From Thermodesulfobacteriota bacterium (GTDB lineage: Bacteria; Desulfobacterota; Desulfarculia; JACQYL01): 64,000 nt of DNA. The stretch lies in the NCBI GenBank assembly GCA_963675595.2, contig CAXXLZ010000002.1:4448001-4512000 (forward strand), read 5' to 3'. The notes beneath the pieces were generated by a model, which was not told the DNA's origin, did not search any database, and saw nothing but the letters and a program-made list of their open reading frames with translations. Each line of letters starts with the position of its first letter. The stretch's first letter is position 1. Position numbers and translations under genes: made by a program. Shown here piece by piece: positions 43,821-49,822 of the stretch.

Positions 43821-44170
43821 TCTCTCCGGCAAGGTTCGGAGCGTGCCCGAAATCGTGCGACATGCACGACATCAGGGGTCGCCCCTGCATAACACGTTAC
43901 CAACGGCGGGGGCCGGTTCTCGGCCCCCGTATCCAATGATTCCCCTTTCATCGAGCGTCTTCTCACGTCTTGTCCTTTGACAAGGAAACGCCTGTTTTTC
44001 GTCTCCCTCCACCACGCCGTCACTCACGGCTCTTCCCGAGCTACGACTCCGAATATTAGGAAATCACTCACATTACGGTCACGGTTTTGTAATCCGCGTG
44101 TTGTTTATTCGGAAACGCAGCTCGAACCATTCATCCACAGTTGGAAAATCACCGAGGGAGATACACGCTC

Positions 44171-46687
44171 ATGAATTTGCGAAGATGGTCGCTGGGAGTG
44201 AAGATCGGAACCGGGTTCGCAGTGCTGATCCTGGTGTTTCTGCTGGTGGGCGGTGTCATGTTGTACGGAGTTGCGGACGTGGCCGAGCGGGCGGGGCAGG
44301 AAATTCGGAGCAATCGGTTGTCGGGGCTCTTTGTGGAACTCGAAATGGATCACTTGCAGTGGCTCAACCGCATAGGCGCGCTGCTCACGGGAAGCGGCGG
44401 CACTGAGAGTGCCGAGGACCTCAACCTGTCCGAGGGTGAAAGCGGTCTGGGTCAATGGCTGACCGGGGAGGAGCGACGAAGCGCGGAGACTCGGTTTTCC
44501 GGCGCTTCGAAATTTTTCACCGCCTTGGAGAGTCAAAACCGGGAGGTCTACGCGGCGGCGCGAGAAGTCGCGGAGGGATTCAGGACGCCTCATGCAGGCC
44601 TGATCTCAAGGCTCCAATCGGTGATGGATCGGCAGAATCTCTACGTCGGCAAACTGGCTCGTTCCGTGGAACAGGAAGCCGGAGCCATTCACACGTACCG
44701 GGTGTTGCTCCGAAACGCGCTGAAACAGGCCACTTCCGTACTCATGGCCTGTGAGCGGGAGCCCAGCTTCGGAGAAAGTGAAGAACGACGGGCCATCGGC
44801 ATGTCCATCATCAAGAACCTGCGCTACGGCATTGAAGGGGAGAACTATTTCTGGGTGACCGACCTGAAAGGCACGATGGTCATGCATCCCACGCGTTTCG
44901 AACTGTTCGCGCAGGACGTTTCGGAATACGAGGACAAGAACGGAAAGAAACTGTTCAAAGAAGCGCTGGCCATGGCCAAGGATTCGGGGTCCGGGTTTCT
45001 CACCTATTTCTGGCCCCCGGATTACGGGGAGGAGCCCAGGCCTGTTTTGGCCTACGTGGAATATTTCGATCCCTGGTATCTGGTGGTGGGCACGGGCGTT
45101 TTTCTCGACCCCGCGGATCCGGGATTGCCGGCGCGGGTCCGGGCGTTCGTAGCCGGGGAGTCCGTCAAACTGAGTGCGGCCGAAGACCCGGGCAAATTCG
45201 CTTTTCGCGAGTTCCTGGACGATCCTGAAACCGGTCTGCTGCGTGGGACGTTTCCCCTACTCCATGAGGCTCTTACCGATGCCGAGGAATCGTACGCCGA
45301 ATTTCTCCGGGCGGCGGCCCAAGTGGAGGAATTGGGCGGTCATATGGAAATCGAATCCGCCAAGCGAGTGATGGCGAACGACCTGGAAACCGCCAGGCAA
45401 CGAATGGAATCCCGGCTGGCGGAAGTGATCCGGGAAGAGGCCGCCATCCGGGCCGAAGCCGTGCACGCGGAACAGGCGTTCTCCGAGCGGCTGATTCCCG
45501 CGTCCCGCGAACTGGTTCGCCTGGTGGGGGAAACCAGAGAGCATTTCATCAACGCCGGCGGGAAACAAAACGTGGTGCTCGAAACCGCCCTGCGCACCAA
45601 GCAGCGGGTCATGGTGGGACTGTCCTTGGCCGTGCTCATCGCCTTGGGTGTGGCCGTGTTCATGATCCGAACCCTCTCCCGGATTCTGCTTCGGGTTTTC
45701 TCGTCCCTCAAGGAAGCCGGAGACGAAGTGGCCGGGACTTCCGGAAAGATTTACGAGTCCAGCCTGGATTTGGCCGAAAGCTCGTCCAAGCAGGCGGATC
45801 ACATCCGGGATATATCGACCACGCTCACCGAACTGGCTTCGAGCACGCAGTCCAACGCGGAACGGGCTCGGAACGCTCGTGGAATCGTGGGGGACTCCAT
45901 GGATGAGCTGAAAAAGGCGACCAAAACCTTGCGTTCTTTGACCGATTCCATGGAGGCCATTCGCCGGTCGGGTCAGGAGAGCAGGAAAATTATCGGCACC
46001 ATCGACGAAATCGCGTTTCAGACCAATCTGCTGGCTTTGAACGCGGCCGTGGAGGCGGCCAGGGCGGGCGAGGCGGGCGCCGGTTTCGGAGTGGTGGCCG
46101 AGGAGGTCCGGAATCTGGCTCGGCGAAGCGCCACGGCCGCGAGCGACACCGCATCCATCCTGGAACAGGCGGCGAGGTCCGTTGAGGCGGGGGCGATTTT
46201 GATTTCCGGCTCCACGGACGTGTTTACACGGATGGAGCGGGAAGCCCAACGGACCATGGAGCTCGTGGAAGAAATCGCGGGCGCATCGGAACGTCAGGCG
46301 CGGGACGTGCGGCACGTGAGCGATGCCGTGGCGGAAACCAACGAAACCGTGGCGGAAACGGCGGCCGCGGCCAAAGCCTCGTCCGAGACCTCGGACGGCA
46401 TGAATCTCCAGGTGGAGAAGATGCGCGACGTGGTGCTGGATATCTCCGCCCTGGTCCGATCCCGGAACGGCAAGGGACTTTTCGGAAGCGAACCGGCCCC
46501 GGCCCGCCTCGAACATCCCGTGCGGCCGTTGATCGAAGATCGGCCGAGCGGAGGAAACGGGCACAAGGAACCCTCGCCCGGAAATTCGGCGTCTCCTTCG
46601 GAGGAAGCCCAAAGCGCGGTCGTTCCTCGGGACGGAAAAAAGGCCCCGGTGGTCGTCGACTCGGAGTACCGCCTGCCGACATTTTAG
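44171..46687 (+). CDS. Methyl-accepting chemotaxis protein with periplasmic CZB-like and Cache domains
   Basis: Two TMs; DHLQWL; Cache motifs [28 protein letters not shown]; [37 protein letters not shown]. Confidence 0.9.
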
Positions 46688-46702
46688 GGCTTGGCGTAAG
46701 GA

Positions 46703-46743
46703 GCCTCTCCGACGGAGGCGGTGAGGCCCGCTTGAAATGTTTT
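46703..46743 (+). repeat. Left part of an intergenic palindromic repeat (family R1), interrupted by MITE and IS110; continues at 48451-48490
   Basis: GCCTCTCCG.CG.AGGCGGTGAGGCCCG matches copies at 58098 and 59040. Confidence 0.65.
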
Positions 46744-46849
46744 AGACATAATGGCTGCACGTGCAGGAAAGTAGGCCCGTCTCCTGCGTTGTTGGGTTAT
46801 GGTGCGAGTAATCAGCACGCCCATCGAACCAACACCAAGGAGGCAGGCC

Positions 46850-47956
46850 ATGACCGATTTTATCTATGTTGGATTGGATGTTCACCAGAAATCGATAGAC
46901 GTTGCCTTGGCCGAAGGGTCCCGTGATGGAGAAGTCCGATCTTACGGCAAGATCAACGGGGAGCCGTCGGATGTGGATCGATTGTTTCGCCGGCTGGGCT
47001 ACAAGAAGGATCGGCTTCGAGTGGTCTACGAAGCCGGCCCATGCGGCTACGTTCTTTACCGGCACCTGCATGCCCGGGGAATCCATTGCACGGTCGTGGC
47101 GCCCTCGCTGACGCCCCGACGAGCCGGCGATCGGATCAAGACGGATCGACGGGATGCGGTCACCCTGGCTCGTCTTCATCGGGCGGGAGAACTCACGGGG
47201 GTGTATGTTCCCCGTGTGGAGGACGAGGCGATACGGGATTTGACCAGGGCCCGGGAGGATGCCAAGAGCTCGGAGCGAAAGGCCAAACAGCGGCTCAACG
47301 CCTTTTTGCTGCGCCACGGTCGGAAGTACGGCGGGCCGCGGAAGTGGAGCCGGGCCCACCGGAGGTGGCTTTCGGACCAGTCGTTTGAACACCCGGCCCA
47401 GCAGATCGTTTTTCAGGAGTATATCGACACCATTGAAGAGTGCGAGCGCCGGGTGGCGCGATTGGTGGAGCAGATTGGCGAGCAGGTGGAGCACTGGCCT
47501 ATGAAACCGGTCGTGGAGGCCTTCCAATCGATGCGAGGCGTGTCGTTGATCGTGGCCGTCACTGTGGTGGCCGAAGTGGGCGACATGACGCGATTTGATG
47601 AGCCCGGGCAGTTGACGGCGTATCTGGGTTTGGTCCCCTCGGAGAGTTCCAGCGGAGGACGGCGCAAACAAGGAGGCATTACCAAGTCCGGCAACGGACA
47701 TGCGCGCCGGGTATTGATCCAGGGGGCCTGGACCTATCGCTATCCGCCCCGAGTGGGCCGCAGGCTGAGGGATCGGCGGGAGGAGGTGCCGTCCGAGGTC
47801 TGCAAGATCGGCTGGAAGGCCCAGCTGCGTCTGTGCGGCCGGTACCACCGGCTGATGGCCCGGGGTAAGCCGTCGCAAGTGGCCGTTACGGCCATTGCAC
47901 GGGAGATGGCCGCCTTTCTGTGGGCGATCGCCCGAGAGGTTCCCGTTGCCGCTTAA
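46850..47956 (+). CDS. IS110 family DEDD transposase/recombinase
   Basis: YVGLDVH, YEAGPCG, KTDRRDA, AYLGLVPSESSSGG (catalytic Ser), GITKSGN; AGGAGG upstream. Confidence 0.95.
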   Translation: MTDFIYVGLDVHQKSIDVALAEGSRDGEVRSYGKINGEPSDVDRLFRRLGYKKDRLRVVYEAGPCGYVLYRHLHARGIHCTVVAPSLTPRRAGDRIKTDRRDAVTLARLHRAGELTGVYVPRVEDEAIRDLTRAREDAKSSERKAKQRLNAFLLRHGRKYGGPRKWSRAHRRWLSDQSFEHPAQQIVFQEYIDTIEECERRVARLVEQIGEQVEHWPMKPVVEAFQSMRGVSLIVAVTVVAEVGDMTRFDEPGQLTAYLGLVPSESSSGGRRKQGGITKSGNGHARRVLIQGAWTYRYPPRVGRRLRDRREEVPSEVCKIGWKAQLRLCGRYHRLMARGKPSQVAVTAIAREMAAFLWAIAREVPVAA

Positions 47957-48019
47957 CTTCTCATCAAGTCCACATCGTTCGATTTGGAAGGAGGACGGCG
48001 CCGTAAAGGAGGGAAACAC

Positions 48020-48220
48020 GGGCTTCAACCTGAGAGCAGGGGCGCAACCGCGGTTAGGAGAATCCTCGTGACCTGTTAGGAGATCAGGCATCTGCCGAAT
48101 CCTCGTCTGTAGAAAGAGGCAGCTCCGCGACGAACCAAGTCCGGCGGTAACCAACCCGCGAATATCAGCATGATCCACCGTCGCTATGCAGGTTCCGCCT
48201 CTGTCCGCAGGTTGAAGTTC
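48020..48220 (+). ncRNA. Predicted bridge/seekRNA of the IS110 element
   Basis: Closed by GCTTCAACCTG/CAGGTTGAAGT; internal loops carry CCTGTTA (complement of the target) and ATATCAG (matches the circle junction). Confidence 0.7.
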
Positions 48221-48296
48221 CATAAATGGTAGCCATACCCCAACGCTACAAGGGGCGGAAGAATGCTGCGCCCTATTGACGTGTGCAGCCATATCA

Positions 48297-48448
48297 ACAG
48301 GCTGTTGAAAAACGCGATCTGCCGCGTTGCGCTTCATCCCTCGTCACTGCGACGTACTCTATGTACGTCTCATTCCTCAGGATTTGCGCGCCTTGCATCT
48401 CATCGTTTTTCAGCAGCCTGCTGCAACCGGCTTTTTTCAACGGGCGGT
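48297..48448. mobile_element. MITE-like element with ACAGGCTGTTGAAAAA ends
   Basis: ACAGGCTGTTGAAAAA ... TTTTTCAGCAGCCTG (ends 48420) and an outer TTTTTTCAACGGGCGGT; flanked by TA once the IS110 is removed; second copy at 61490-61635. Confidence 0.75.
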
Positions 48449-48450
48449 TA

Positions 48451-48490
48451 AGGGGGGAGCACGGGGGGAACTTTTTCAAAAGTTCCCCCC
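48451..48490. repeat. Right part of the interrupted palindromic repeat
   Basis: GGGGGGAACTTTTTCAAAAGTTCCCCCC hairpin. Confidence 0.65.
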
Positions 48491-48523
48491 GTGAATGTCA
48501 ATTTTGATTCTTGCCGAGACCGG

Positions 48524-49822
48524 CTACTCCGTCACCATCTGCCGGCAACGGGTTTCCCGGGTCAGGCTCAACAGGATCACCGACACCAGGGTCCAGGCGG
48601 TCATGAGCAGAAACGCGCTTCGGAATGCTTCCAGGTCGTAGATGCGCACTTCTCCGTTAAGAGCGCCCCGCCATTTCAGGTCCAATACCCATCCCATGAT
48701 CGGCTGGAGAATCATGGGGCCCATCATCACCCCCATATTGCATACCCCGGCCACGGTGCCCGCCAATTTTGGAGGCACGGATTCCTTGGCGTAGGCGAAG
48801 CCCAGGATGATGCATCCCGAGGCGAATCCCACCACGGCCAGCAGCACGGCCAGAACCGAGAAAGGAAGGGCTTCCACGTAGAGAATCACGCCCCACCCGC
48901 CCAAAGCCACCAGGCTTCCAGCCAGATAGATGGGTTTTCTGCGATGGATGCGGTCGGACAGGTAGCCCAGCACCGGACCTCCGAGGGCCCAGGCCACGAG
49001 CAGGGTCGAGGTGAACAGCGCGCTTTCCGACTGGGACAGGCCGTAATGCGTGGACAAGAAGGGCACTCCCCACAGGCCGGAGAAGGCCAAAACCGGACCC
49101 ACCACTCCGCCGGGGGCCAGGGTGAGGAGCCAAGTGTTGCGATACCGGAAAATGGCCCGCAATCCGGACAATGCGGCCCCGAACGTGGCCCCGCCCTTTT
49201 GGCGGGTCGATTCATGGGCGTAGCCTTCGTATCCCTTGTCCGAAGGATCGTCCCGCACCACCGCCCACACGGCTGCGGTGAGCAGGAGGGAGACGCACGC
49301 CGATACGAACATGACGGAGCGCCATCCAAAGGCATTCACCAACAGGCGGAGCGGGACCCCGGCGGTGACCGCTCCCAGAATCCCGCAAAAAAGAGCCATC
49401 CCGCTCACCATGGCGAAGCGCTGTGGCGGGAACCAGTGGGAAGCCAGTTTGAGCAAAGCGACCCACGCCACGGCCACGGAGCCCCCGATGAGAAGCCTGC
49501 CCAGGTCGGCCAGAGCGATGTCCGGGGCCAGGGCGAAGAGAAAGGTCCCCAAGGCGGACACCAGCGCGCCGGCGGCCAGCAGCTTTCTGGGACCCAGATG
49601 GTCCGCCAGGATTCCGGTGGGAATCTGCATGAACACGTAGCTGTAGAAATAGAAGGCGGAGAGATTGCCGAGCACCGCGGCTCCGATGTGAAACTCGGCC
49701 ATGAGCAGGTCCGTCATGACCGCGGGCGCCACCCTCTGGTAGAAGCCTGTGCAGTAGAAGAGCGCTCCCAGTCCCCAGATCATCCAGGACAGGCGGGCCG
49801 GGGGAAATTTTTCGGAATGCAT
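48524..49822 (-). CDS. MFS transporter
   Basis: QIPTGILADHLGPRK, GRLLIG, WFPPQRF, GYLSDRIHRRK, about 12 TMs; the longer ORF start lies in repeats. Confidence 0.88.
   Translation of the reverse strand: MHSEKFPPARLSWMIWGLGALFYCTGFYQRVAPAVMTDLLMAEFHIGAAVLGNLSAFYFYSYVFMQIPTGILADHLGPRKLLAAGALVSALGTFLFALAPDIALADLGRLLIGGSVAVAWVALLKLASHWFPPQRFAMVSGMALFCGILGAVTAGVPLRLLVNAFGWRSVMFVSACVSLLLTAAVWAVVRDDPSDKGYEGYAHESTRQKGGATFGAALSGLRAIFRYRNTWLLTLAPGGVVGPVLAFSGLWGVPFLSTHYGLSQSESALFTSTLLVAWALGGPVLGYLSDRIHRRKPIYLAGSLVALGGWGVILYVEALPFSVLAVLLAVVGFASGCIILGFAYAKESVPPKLAGTVAGVCNMGVMMGPMILQPIMGWVLDLKWRGALNGEVRIYDLEAFRSAFLLMTAWTLVSVILLSLTRETRCRQMVTE

Follow-up and report, generated by a model that had tools for sequence, protein, structure and literature searches.

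An IS1111-group insertion sequence with predicted RNA guides that match its insertion site at the end of an abundant repeat

Insertion sequences of the IS1111 group, among them ISEc11, ISPa11, ISKpn4 and ISPst6 (Siddiquee et al. 2024, PMC11187229), are described as carrying a gene for a DEDD transposase followed by a non-coding region, subterminal repeats set inside terminal extensions, and a promoter at the junction of the circular form. In their seekRNAs a complement of the top target strand lies 5′ of a complement of the bottom strand, the two overlapping in the target, and in the experiments on group members recounted in that source the downstream RNA is both required and reprogrammable. 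The bridge RNA of IS621, as portrayed by Durrant et al. (2024, PMC11208160), is divided into a target module and a donor module, with the core lying within each pairing. Here we describe a 1552-bp mobile element on the plus strand at positions 46744-48295 of a 64,000-nucleotide stretch (the window; positions 4,448,001 to 4,512,000 of contig CAXXLZ010000002.1, assembly GCA_963675595.2) from a Thermodesulfobacteriota bacterium. The element shares this whole layout with the IS1111 elements, its circle-junction promoter being predicted, a likeness judged on layout rather than on an alignment of RNA sequences. It differs from them in the length of its transposase (368 aa against the 330-350 aa given in PMC11187229, a small departure), in its target, which is the terminus of a repeat resembling a MITE (miniature inverted-repeat transposable element), and in being known from sequence alone. 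We hold with high confidence that it is an intact, recently active IS1111-group element of the IS110 family, with RNA guides matching its MITE-end site. The evidence consists of its anatomy, its copies, the correspondence of guide to flank and the covariation of the RNA structure, all of which are observed directly. The element is a further IS1111-type member, and repeat targeting by the IS110 family was already known.

The element starts with AGACATAATGG at 46744 and ends with GCCATATC at 48295, and its removal restores the site ...TGTTTT|AACAGGCTG. Five copies are found in the genome of the bacterium (6.79 Mb, three contigs), namely the window copy and four sisters, each 1552 bp long and 98-100% identical, with the transposase frame open in all five; together with unoccupied repeat ends they delimit the whole insertion sequence. 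In element orientation, the window copy is flanked by ...TGTTTT and AACAGGCTG (site T|AACAGG), sister 1 by ...CCCCCT and ATCAGCCTG (T|ATCAGC), sister 2 by ...GGCCCT and ATCAGGCTG (T|ATCAGG), sister 3 by ...ATCTGT and AGCAGCCCG (T|AGCAGC), and sister 4 by ...GAGGCT and ATCAGGCTG (T|ATCAGG). A preliminary description of the window had proposed checking whether the flanks of other copies share TA(A/G)CAGG; a common motif does exist, its actual form being T|A(A/T/G)CAG(G/C), and it extends in all five sites to T|A-N-CAG-S-C-Y-G. Target-site duplications are absent, as are terminal inverted repeats at the very ends (AGACAT... against ...CATATC), and the two junctions of each of the five copies share just one A, which leaves the element ends uncertain by 1 nt. 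Where the flanking repeat has a free end, the sequence runs ...T|A-N-CAGGCYGTTGAAAAACG without intervening bases, which fits the boundaries given here. These unoccupied ends contradict two other placements of the core that were considered, TA (with the boundaries moved by 3 nt) and AG within CAGG. Solo copies of the RNA region were looked for in the same genome and none was found, the matches being the five elements only.

The ends, loops and promoter hexamers set out in the preliminary description were all located where it had placed them, and its central statement, that CCTGTTA is a guide to the target, is supported for the right half of the target. This heptamer (48072-48078) forms the 5′ guide, complementary to the top strand and resembling a right target guide (RTG), and reads T-AA-CAGG; it matches its own site at 7/7 bases, and the same match between loop and right flank is seen in relatives (see below). 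On the opposite strand of the loop, the 3′ guide TCTGT-AG-AAA (48106-48115), which contains TGTAG at 48108-48112, has the top-strand sense and resembles a left target guide (LTG), its AAA being similar to the first bases of the left end. The sister copies differ from the window copy at two bases of these strands. At base 48076 the window copy has T where all four sisters have A, giving the sister loop CCTGATA, and base 48109 is G in the window copy and C in the sisters. The sister 5′ guide reads T-AT-CAGG, which is matched exactly at two sister sites, with one mismatch at another and with two at the fourth, and three of the four sisters sit at T|ATCAG(G/C). The ...CT predicted by the sister 3′ guide is present at three of the four sites. 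In sum, guide base 48076 agrees with the insertion site in 4/5 copies, and the genome holds two sublineages of the element, with T or A at this guide base and sites of T|AA... or T|AT... correspondingly. Both variants of the target module are also present in contigs of sequencing runs from two studies, at a depth ratio of about 1:3.

The two 7-nt matches on which the preliminary description relied, that of CCTGTTA to the target and that of a second loop to the joined ends, are not significant when taken alone. In 2000 mononucleotide shuffles of the 339-nt non-coding region, a complement of at least 7 nt to the 20-nt target occurred in 15.8% (28.3% when either sense was allowed), and a 7-nt match to the junction in 27.6%. 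The matches gain their meaning because they are placed in loops of a conserved, covarying RNA scaffold and because the loop sequence varies together with the flank, both within this genome and across 82-83 distinct related loci.

The relatives were collected in three ways: 3 loci were retrieved by a search with a single protein, about 12 loci (55-61% protein identity, aligning across nearly the whole transposase) came from 400 genomes of the same phylum, and 119 metagenome loci were found with a DNA pattern derived from the conserved scaffold, a pattern that fixes part of the donor module. The 5′ loop strand of these relatives is the complement of the right flank. When the loop was compared with the complement of right-flank bases 3-10, agreement over at least 5 nt was reached in 52% of the true pairs (82 distinct loci) and in only 2.7% of mismatched loop and flank pairs. 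The 5′ loop usually ends in CT-A and reads T-AG in the target, in accordance with the right flanks of 83 loci, which start with AG in 73, AA in 7, GG in 2 and AC in 1; where the flank departs from AG, the matching dinucleotide is found in the 5′ loop in 10/10 loci. The 3′ loop strand, in the top-strand sense, comprises left-flank bases, then AG (84/86 loci), then 3 nt resembling bases 3-5 of the left end. At positions -1, -2, -3, -4 and -5 it agrees with the left flank in 93, 93, 55, 43 and 25%, respectively (44 loci), against 77, 33, 24, 26 and 20% in controls. The left guide of the subfamily specifies only about 2-4 left-flank bases plus AG, and the right guide is about 7-9 nt long. The preliminary description had called the match of the left-target guide weak. 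The left flank of the window copy does fit poorly, but this is the norm of the subfamily and no defect, because the 3′ loop specifies only positions -1 to about -3 throughout. We note that one metagenome contig (L109) carries two tandem copies of a relative, with pattern matches about 1.9 kb apart, and that one copy has as its left flank the exact sequence of the other copy's 3′ guide region (ACTCGCGATAAC|AG...); this element appears to have inserted into DNA encoding its own left guide, which resembles half of the target.

The guides are embedded in a structured non-coding region (48022-48218, plus strand), like a bridge RNA or seekRNA in plan, as the preliminary description had proposed, and the relatives show a conserved and covarying scaffold around the guide loops. 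In minimum-free-energy folds, a long closing stem (approximately 48022-48044 with 48196-48218) encloses two modules. The outer stems of the target loop have their 5′ strands at 48057-48067, where GGAG (48057-48060) and CCTC (48064-48067) pair with GAGG (48116-48119) and CTCC (48123-48126), and an inner hairpin between the two guide strands (48080-48104) is formed by GAG (48080-48082) with CTC (48102-48104) in the register of the family. The donor loop module (48127-48184) is bounded by GCGACG (48127-48132) and CGTCGC (48179-48184) and surrounds a hairpin of GCGG (48144-48147) with CCGC (48156-48159). The same plan recurs in 82 non-redundant sequences, which were aligned with MAFFT and analysed for structure with RNAalifold: GGAGAAYCCTCG, the variable 5′ loop strand, the inner stem, a G, the variable 3′ loop strand and GAGGCAGCTCC, followed in the donor part by CGACG, the GCGG/CCGC hairpin, GAATATCAG and CGTCG.

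RNAalifold recovered the stems of the target loop and the small hairpin. The inner stem covaries, with both sides changed in 34/82 and 31/82 sequences at two of its pairs. The outer pairs of the target loop are invariant in 82/82, so that the alignment neither supports nor contradicts them. The closing stem and the GCGACG/CGTCGC stem were not recovered by RNAalifold from the 82 sequences because the edges of the alignment are poor. For the closing stem, pairing in relatives was assessed by duplex energy, and the 5′ and 3′ flanks of the same locus paired better than chimeric combinations in 80/82 relatives (mean -49.9 against -26.0, as printed by the program).

Compared with IS621, the RNA of the window element lies at the right end of the element, the order of its guide strands is reversed, its left guide is limited to about 2-4 nt plus the core, and its donor pairing appears to be split around a hairpin; a multi-loop arrangement is noted for IS1111 orthologues by Durrant et al. 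(PMC11208160). In the donor module, the loop inside GCGACG/CGTCGC carries ATATCAG (48162-48168), which is identical to the joined right and left ends (5 nt from the end of the element, then 2 nt from its start), as had been claimed for it. Conservation of this heptamer in the metagenome set proves nothing, because the search pattern fixed that stretch; outside that set, ATATCAG occurs in the relatives drawn from genomes and in the region downstream of the gene in ISSso6 copies of E. coli. A search for a further donor guide, one complementary to the left end, yielded only a 3-nt correspondence, between GTC (48139-48141) and GAC of the left end. Across relatives, the sequence 5′ of the donor hairpin is xGTC where the left end is AGAC (22/25 loci) and GAYY where the left end is AGTC (17/18 loci). 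This pattern would fit pairing with left-end bases 2-4, a weak indication, as it follows two clades.

The element named ISSso6 in E. coli and Shigella (annotated as 'IS110-like element ISSso6 family transposase') shares with the window element a 40-nt donor-module core that is 92.5% identical, including the hairpin and GAATATCAG, and a right end that likewise finishes ...CATATC. It differs in the remaining non-coding region, which gave no blastn alignment, and in its target. In one E. coli locus with ISSso6 (L152:1800-1960), the sequence after the right end (...CATATC|AGCGTGATTCACCGTCGG...) repeats the donor-module sequence that follows ATATC about 110 nt upstream, and it seems that this copy is inserted into the DNA of another copy's donor guide.

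The transposase gene (46850-47956, plus strand) encodes 368 aa from an ATG behind AGGAGG; the longer frame opens at 46799 and would give 385 aa from its first ATG. Its product matches Pfam PF01548, the N-terminal DEDD RuvC-like domain (62.7 bits, cutoff 29, 4.5e-17), the C-terminal PF02371 (79.1 bits, cutoff 21.3, 3.3e-22), and NCBIfam NF033542, 'IS110 family RNA-guided transposase' (276.8 bits, cutoff 140). The motif GL-P----S(t)G, quoted for the C-terminal domain of IS1111 transposases (PMC11187229), is present as GLVPSESSSG. Non-coding DNA amounts to 106 nt upstream of the gene and 339 nt downstream, and a long non-coding region downstream of the transposase gene is a criterion of the IS1111 group (PMC11187229, PMC11208160). 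The left end begins with a 7-nt terminal extension, AGACATA (46744-46750), whose first two bases AG form the donor 'core', followed by the left subterminal inverted repeat ATGGCTGCAC (46751-46760). This is the perfect complement of the right subterminal repeat GTGCAGCCAT (48283-48292), after which the 3-nt extension ATC completes the right end (48283-48295 in all). The repeat is 10 bp long and is set in from the left end by 7 nt and from the right end by 3 nt; the IS1111 values quoted in PMC11187229 are repeats of usually 11-13 bp, with 7-17 also given, and extensions of 7 (or 6) nt at the left and 3 nt at the right. By these defining features of its sequence, the element is assigned to the IS1111 group of the IS110 family. 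The family named in the preliminary description stands, and the group is IS1111 and not IS110 proper.

The -35-like hexamer TTGACG lies in the right end (48276-48281) and the -10-like hexamer CATAAT in the left end (46747-46752), the latter being usable only when the right end is joined to the left. In the joined form the two are separated by 17 nt upstream of the transposase gene, as the preliminary description had it, and the arrangement is kept in relatives, where the spacer across the joined ends is 17-18 nt in 94/103 loci and the -35-like hexamer is TTGACA in 83/103.

These parts can be assembled into a putative mechanism, in which expression of the RNA, formation of the circle and base pairing during recombination are deduced by analogy. 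Like ISEc11 and IS621, the element would excise as a circle, and joining of its right end to its left would create the TTGACG-17 nt-CATAAT promoter facing the transposase gene. The DEDD/serine recombinase would then bind the structured RNA, some 200 nt long, specified by the DNA that follows its gene. In the target module, the 3′ strand (48106-48112), in the top-strand sense, would specify the last 2-4 left-flank bases plus AG, while the donor module would contribute ATATCAG, the last 5 nt of the element with its first 2. The expected outcome is orientation-specific insertion 2 nt outside the CAGG terminus of an abundant MITE-like repeat.

The core dinucleotide departs from the IS621 type, in which, as described, RNA pairing to both core strands is strongly preferred. 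In the window element the second core base of the target is unlike that of the donor and is matched by only one of the two guide strands. AG is found in the donor junction and the 3′ guide; in the target and the 5′ guide its place is taken by AA in the window copy and by AT in three sisters, and the same core shared by donor and target and paired by both guide strands is not what these copies show. In 5/5 informative cases (the window copy, three sisters and one related locus, L060), AG is retained at the left junction and the target dinucleotide at the right, and the same kind of departure occurs in 10/83 relatives. The AG core of the preliminary description holds for the subfamily consensus (73/83 right flanks), the donor junction and the left guide; it fails for the targets of the window copy (AA) and of three sisters (AT). 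As judged from the loops and flanks, the second core base is read only by the 5′ guide strand, and it may be reprogrammable on its own, the 5′ guide having TT or AT in place of the consensus CT. The junction pattern, if true, may imply a strand exchange unlike the two-base staggered exchange of IS621; a one-base overlap, or a single-strand exchange completed by replication, could provide the geometry. According to a preprint on IS621, that element mostly moves a single strand and tolerates half-matches, and a similar single-strand mechanism could account for the core mismatch.

The window copy itself is a mosaic. It has 26 private differences, 23 of which fall in the 323 nt of 47787-48109, three in the preceding 1043 nt and none after. 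The tract 47787-48109, which is about 7% diverged, ends inside the 3′ guide and has no other copy in the genome; with 23 differences packed there, it looks like an exchanged tract and not a point change. This suggests that the target module of the window copy came by recombination with a relative absent from this genome, and such swapping may take place through recombination within the invariant scaffold that borders the loops on both sides. The combined proposal that the second core base need not match between donor and target, and that target modules are swapped between related elements, is a tentative one, which we judge possible and rather unlikely. If target modules are swapped, sublineages in one genome could divide the repeat copies between them according to the variable bases beside the terminus.

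The target repeat is a MITE-like sequence of about 155-160 bp with inverted-repeat ends (48296-48450, plus strand), whose left terminus is the target of the window copy. Searched with blastn, it returns 162 and 170 matches genome-wide, of which 55 come close to its full length. Four of the five element copies adjoin repeat termini, always with the right end toward the terminus; three abut the 5′ terminus of the repeat and one abuts the 3′ terminus of another repeat copy in reversed orientation. The proposal that the conserved end of an abundant MITE is the target is supported to this extent, and sister 1 lies at an unrelated, non-repeat site reading T|ATCAGCCTG. The insertion point is 2 nt outside the conserved CAGG, so that half of the target is ordinary flank, and the two bases beside the terminus vary among repeat copies. 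At the occupied 5′ termini the variable base fits the guide in 3/3 cases; the variable base N of 24 free T|A-N-CAG repeat ends is A or C in 8 cases each and T or G in 4 each. One such free end, at about 1536351 on the minus strand of contig C2, has the flank ...GAAAGAATGTTT|AACAGGCTGTTGAAAAACG and closely resembles the restored site of the window copy; it constitutes a paralogous empty site fitting the window-type guide.

Repeats are reportedly targets elsewhere in the family, namely repetitive extragenic palindromic (REP) sequences for ISPpu9, ISPpu10 and IS621, the inverted repeats of transposons for IS4321 and IS5075, and attC sites for the IS1111-attC group, and are said, going by their titles, to be the subject of studies by Tobes and Pareja (2006), Partridge and Hall (2003) and Post and Hall (2009). 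The window element has in common with such elements a site- and orientation-specific insertion into repeated, mostly intergenic DNA, which offers many harmless sites. It differs in that its target is the outer edge of a MITE-like repeat of about 155 bp, half of the site being non-repeat flank. For ISPpu9, the published account (PMC12288879) includes site- and orientation-specific insertion into a repeated sequence, REP. A limited literature search returned no published description of a MITE terminus as a target of IS110 or IS1111 elements, a result that leaves its absence unproven.

The guided site is short (7-9 nt) and frequent in the genome, with 526 occurrences of TATCAGG, 130 of CTATCAGG and 206 of TAACAGG, so that the guides alone do not explain the restriction to repeat ends, and selection or a further determinant is needed. 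It is a serious possibility, falling just short of an even chance in our estimation, that the guides provide only a short, degenerate site and that the concentration at repeat ends results mainly from purifying selection, which would remove insertions at the many matching sites within genes, or from a further feature of the repeat that acts on targeting, for instance its inverted ends folding into a hairpin. In line with this, two sisters occupy CTATCAGG sites at repeat ends and none occupies the others among the 60 of 130 such sites listed, of which two were recognised as free repeat ends, and the CAG-S-C-Y-G common to all five sites extends past the loop pairing. A target stem-loop has also been put forward as a second layer of specificity for ISPpu10, another IS110 element, in a preprint (10.64898/2026.03.19.712850). 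Against this explanation, one copy lies at the non-repeat T|ATCAGCCTG, and the repeat is therefore not required; moreover, all three occupied 5′ termini carry the guide-fitting base, whereas the free ends are mixed at N. The preliminary description had regarded the element as programmed against the MITE as a safe harbour. The outcome at repeat ends stands; the guide alone does not establish the design, since matching sites are frequent elsewhere, and 'safe harbour' is reasonably kept as a description of an outcome.

A number of observations weigh against the guide reading as a whole. The 3′ guide of the window copy predicts ...TGT|AG where the flank is ...TTT, fitting at 2/5 positions (-1 and -3), with G against T at position -2; one sister occupies a site with two mismatches to its 5′ guide, and another, at the non-repeat site, has one. 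MAFFT placed the 5′ loop of the window one base off, and the register was set by hand. Covariation on the donor side is weak, because the search pattern fixes part of that module and the remaining signal splits into two clades. No Rfam match was found within the element at E up to 1 (46400-48700 scanned, with two weak matches, both outside the element). A promoter scan of 46650-48450 gave no sigma-70-like promoter on the plus strand upstream of the RNA; its one promoter-like site is on the minus strand, and the scan speaks neither for nor against the RNA. Among the sequencing runs that contain the stretch, none is recorded as RNA, and no circle junction was seen, only contigs of four runs being covered. 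One might argue from such points that the 7-nt matches are coincidental, that the protein chooses the target, for example through the subterminal repeats, and that the downstream region is a structured untranslated region; matches of this length do occur in 16-28% of shuffled non-coding regions, and the lack of an RNA-recorded run and of an Rfam match sits well with it. We nevertheless find this highly improbable. The loop follows the flank in 82-83 distinct relatives while the surrounding scaffold stays constant, a family-wide correspondence that already contradicts coincidence, guide base and site change together within the genome, and for IS1111 members published experiments have found the downstream RNA to be necessary and open to reprogramming (PMC11187229). 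We find it equally hard to credit that 48076 changed only once the element was in place, for example through drift or through conversion of its guide DNA to the target close by, and is uninformative on targeting. With a single copy of the window type, the association within the genome does rest on few events; however, 48076 is one of the 23 window-specific differences in a segment with the look of an exchanged tract, both variants recur in runs of two studies, and relatives show the same correspondence at this guide position. RNA guides matching the insertion site remain the reading that we favour.

On that reading, the guide of a bridge RNA or seekRNA was correctly readable from raw sequence, and the locus offers an example of natural reprogramming, in which a single guide base, together with the matching base of the site, distinguishes two co-resident sublineages. 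From the survey emerges an IS1111 subfamily, its more than 100 members coming from metagenomes and genomes, with an invariant scaffold and a simple loop code; a relative of it may already be included in the published seekRNA and bridge RNA work. The subfamily could help to annotate such elements, IS1111-type bridge RNAs being less well described than that of IS621, and the second core base, at which donor and target differ, gives a sequence-level handle on strand exchange in the group. For genome biology, the locus documents a three-layer nesting of repeats.

This nesting is seen in the DNA outside the insertion sequence and the MITE-like repeat. The segments 46680-46743 and 48451-48515 belong to a second repeat family, each half giving more than 110 blastn hits, and the two halves are normally 2-45 bp apart in the genome. 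The locus is nested three deep, since this repeat is split by the MITE-like repeat, at whose edge the insertion sequence lies. The right half of the second repeat contains a strong hairpin, GGGGGGAACTTTTTCAAAAGTTCCCCCC, at about 48463-48490. At the window copy, the MITE-like repeat has TTAA on both sides, and no consistent rule of target duplication emerged across its genome copies; in some of them, the bases immediately beyond CAGG at one end complement those at the other and do not form direct repeats. The contigs of the sequencing runs show many 'joints' around the element that stem from other copies of the repeats flanking it, and one contig (X1) joins 46737 to 48296 and may represent a paralogous empty site.

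The genome also encodes a second IS110-family transposase, 30% identical to that of the window, in 8 copies (for example at 1357651-1358640, 2980330-2981319, 3244223-3245212 and 3699033-3700022 of contig C2 and at 343083-344072 of contig C1), some of which lie, by their coordinates, within a few kb of MITE copies. Upstream of the window element, an 848-aa frame (44141-46687) resembles, from its translation only, a membrane-bound sensor of the methyl-accepting chemotaxis type; it stops about 55 nt before the insertion point, which places the element in the intergenic region downstream of this gene.

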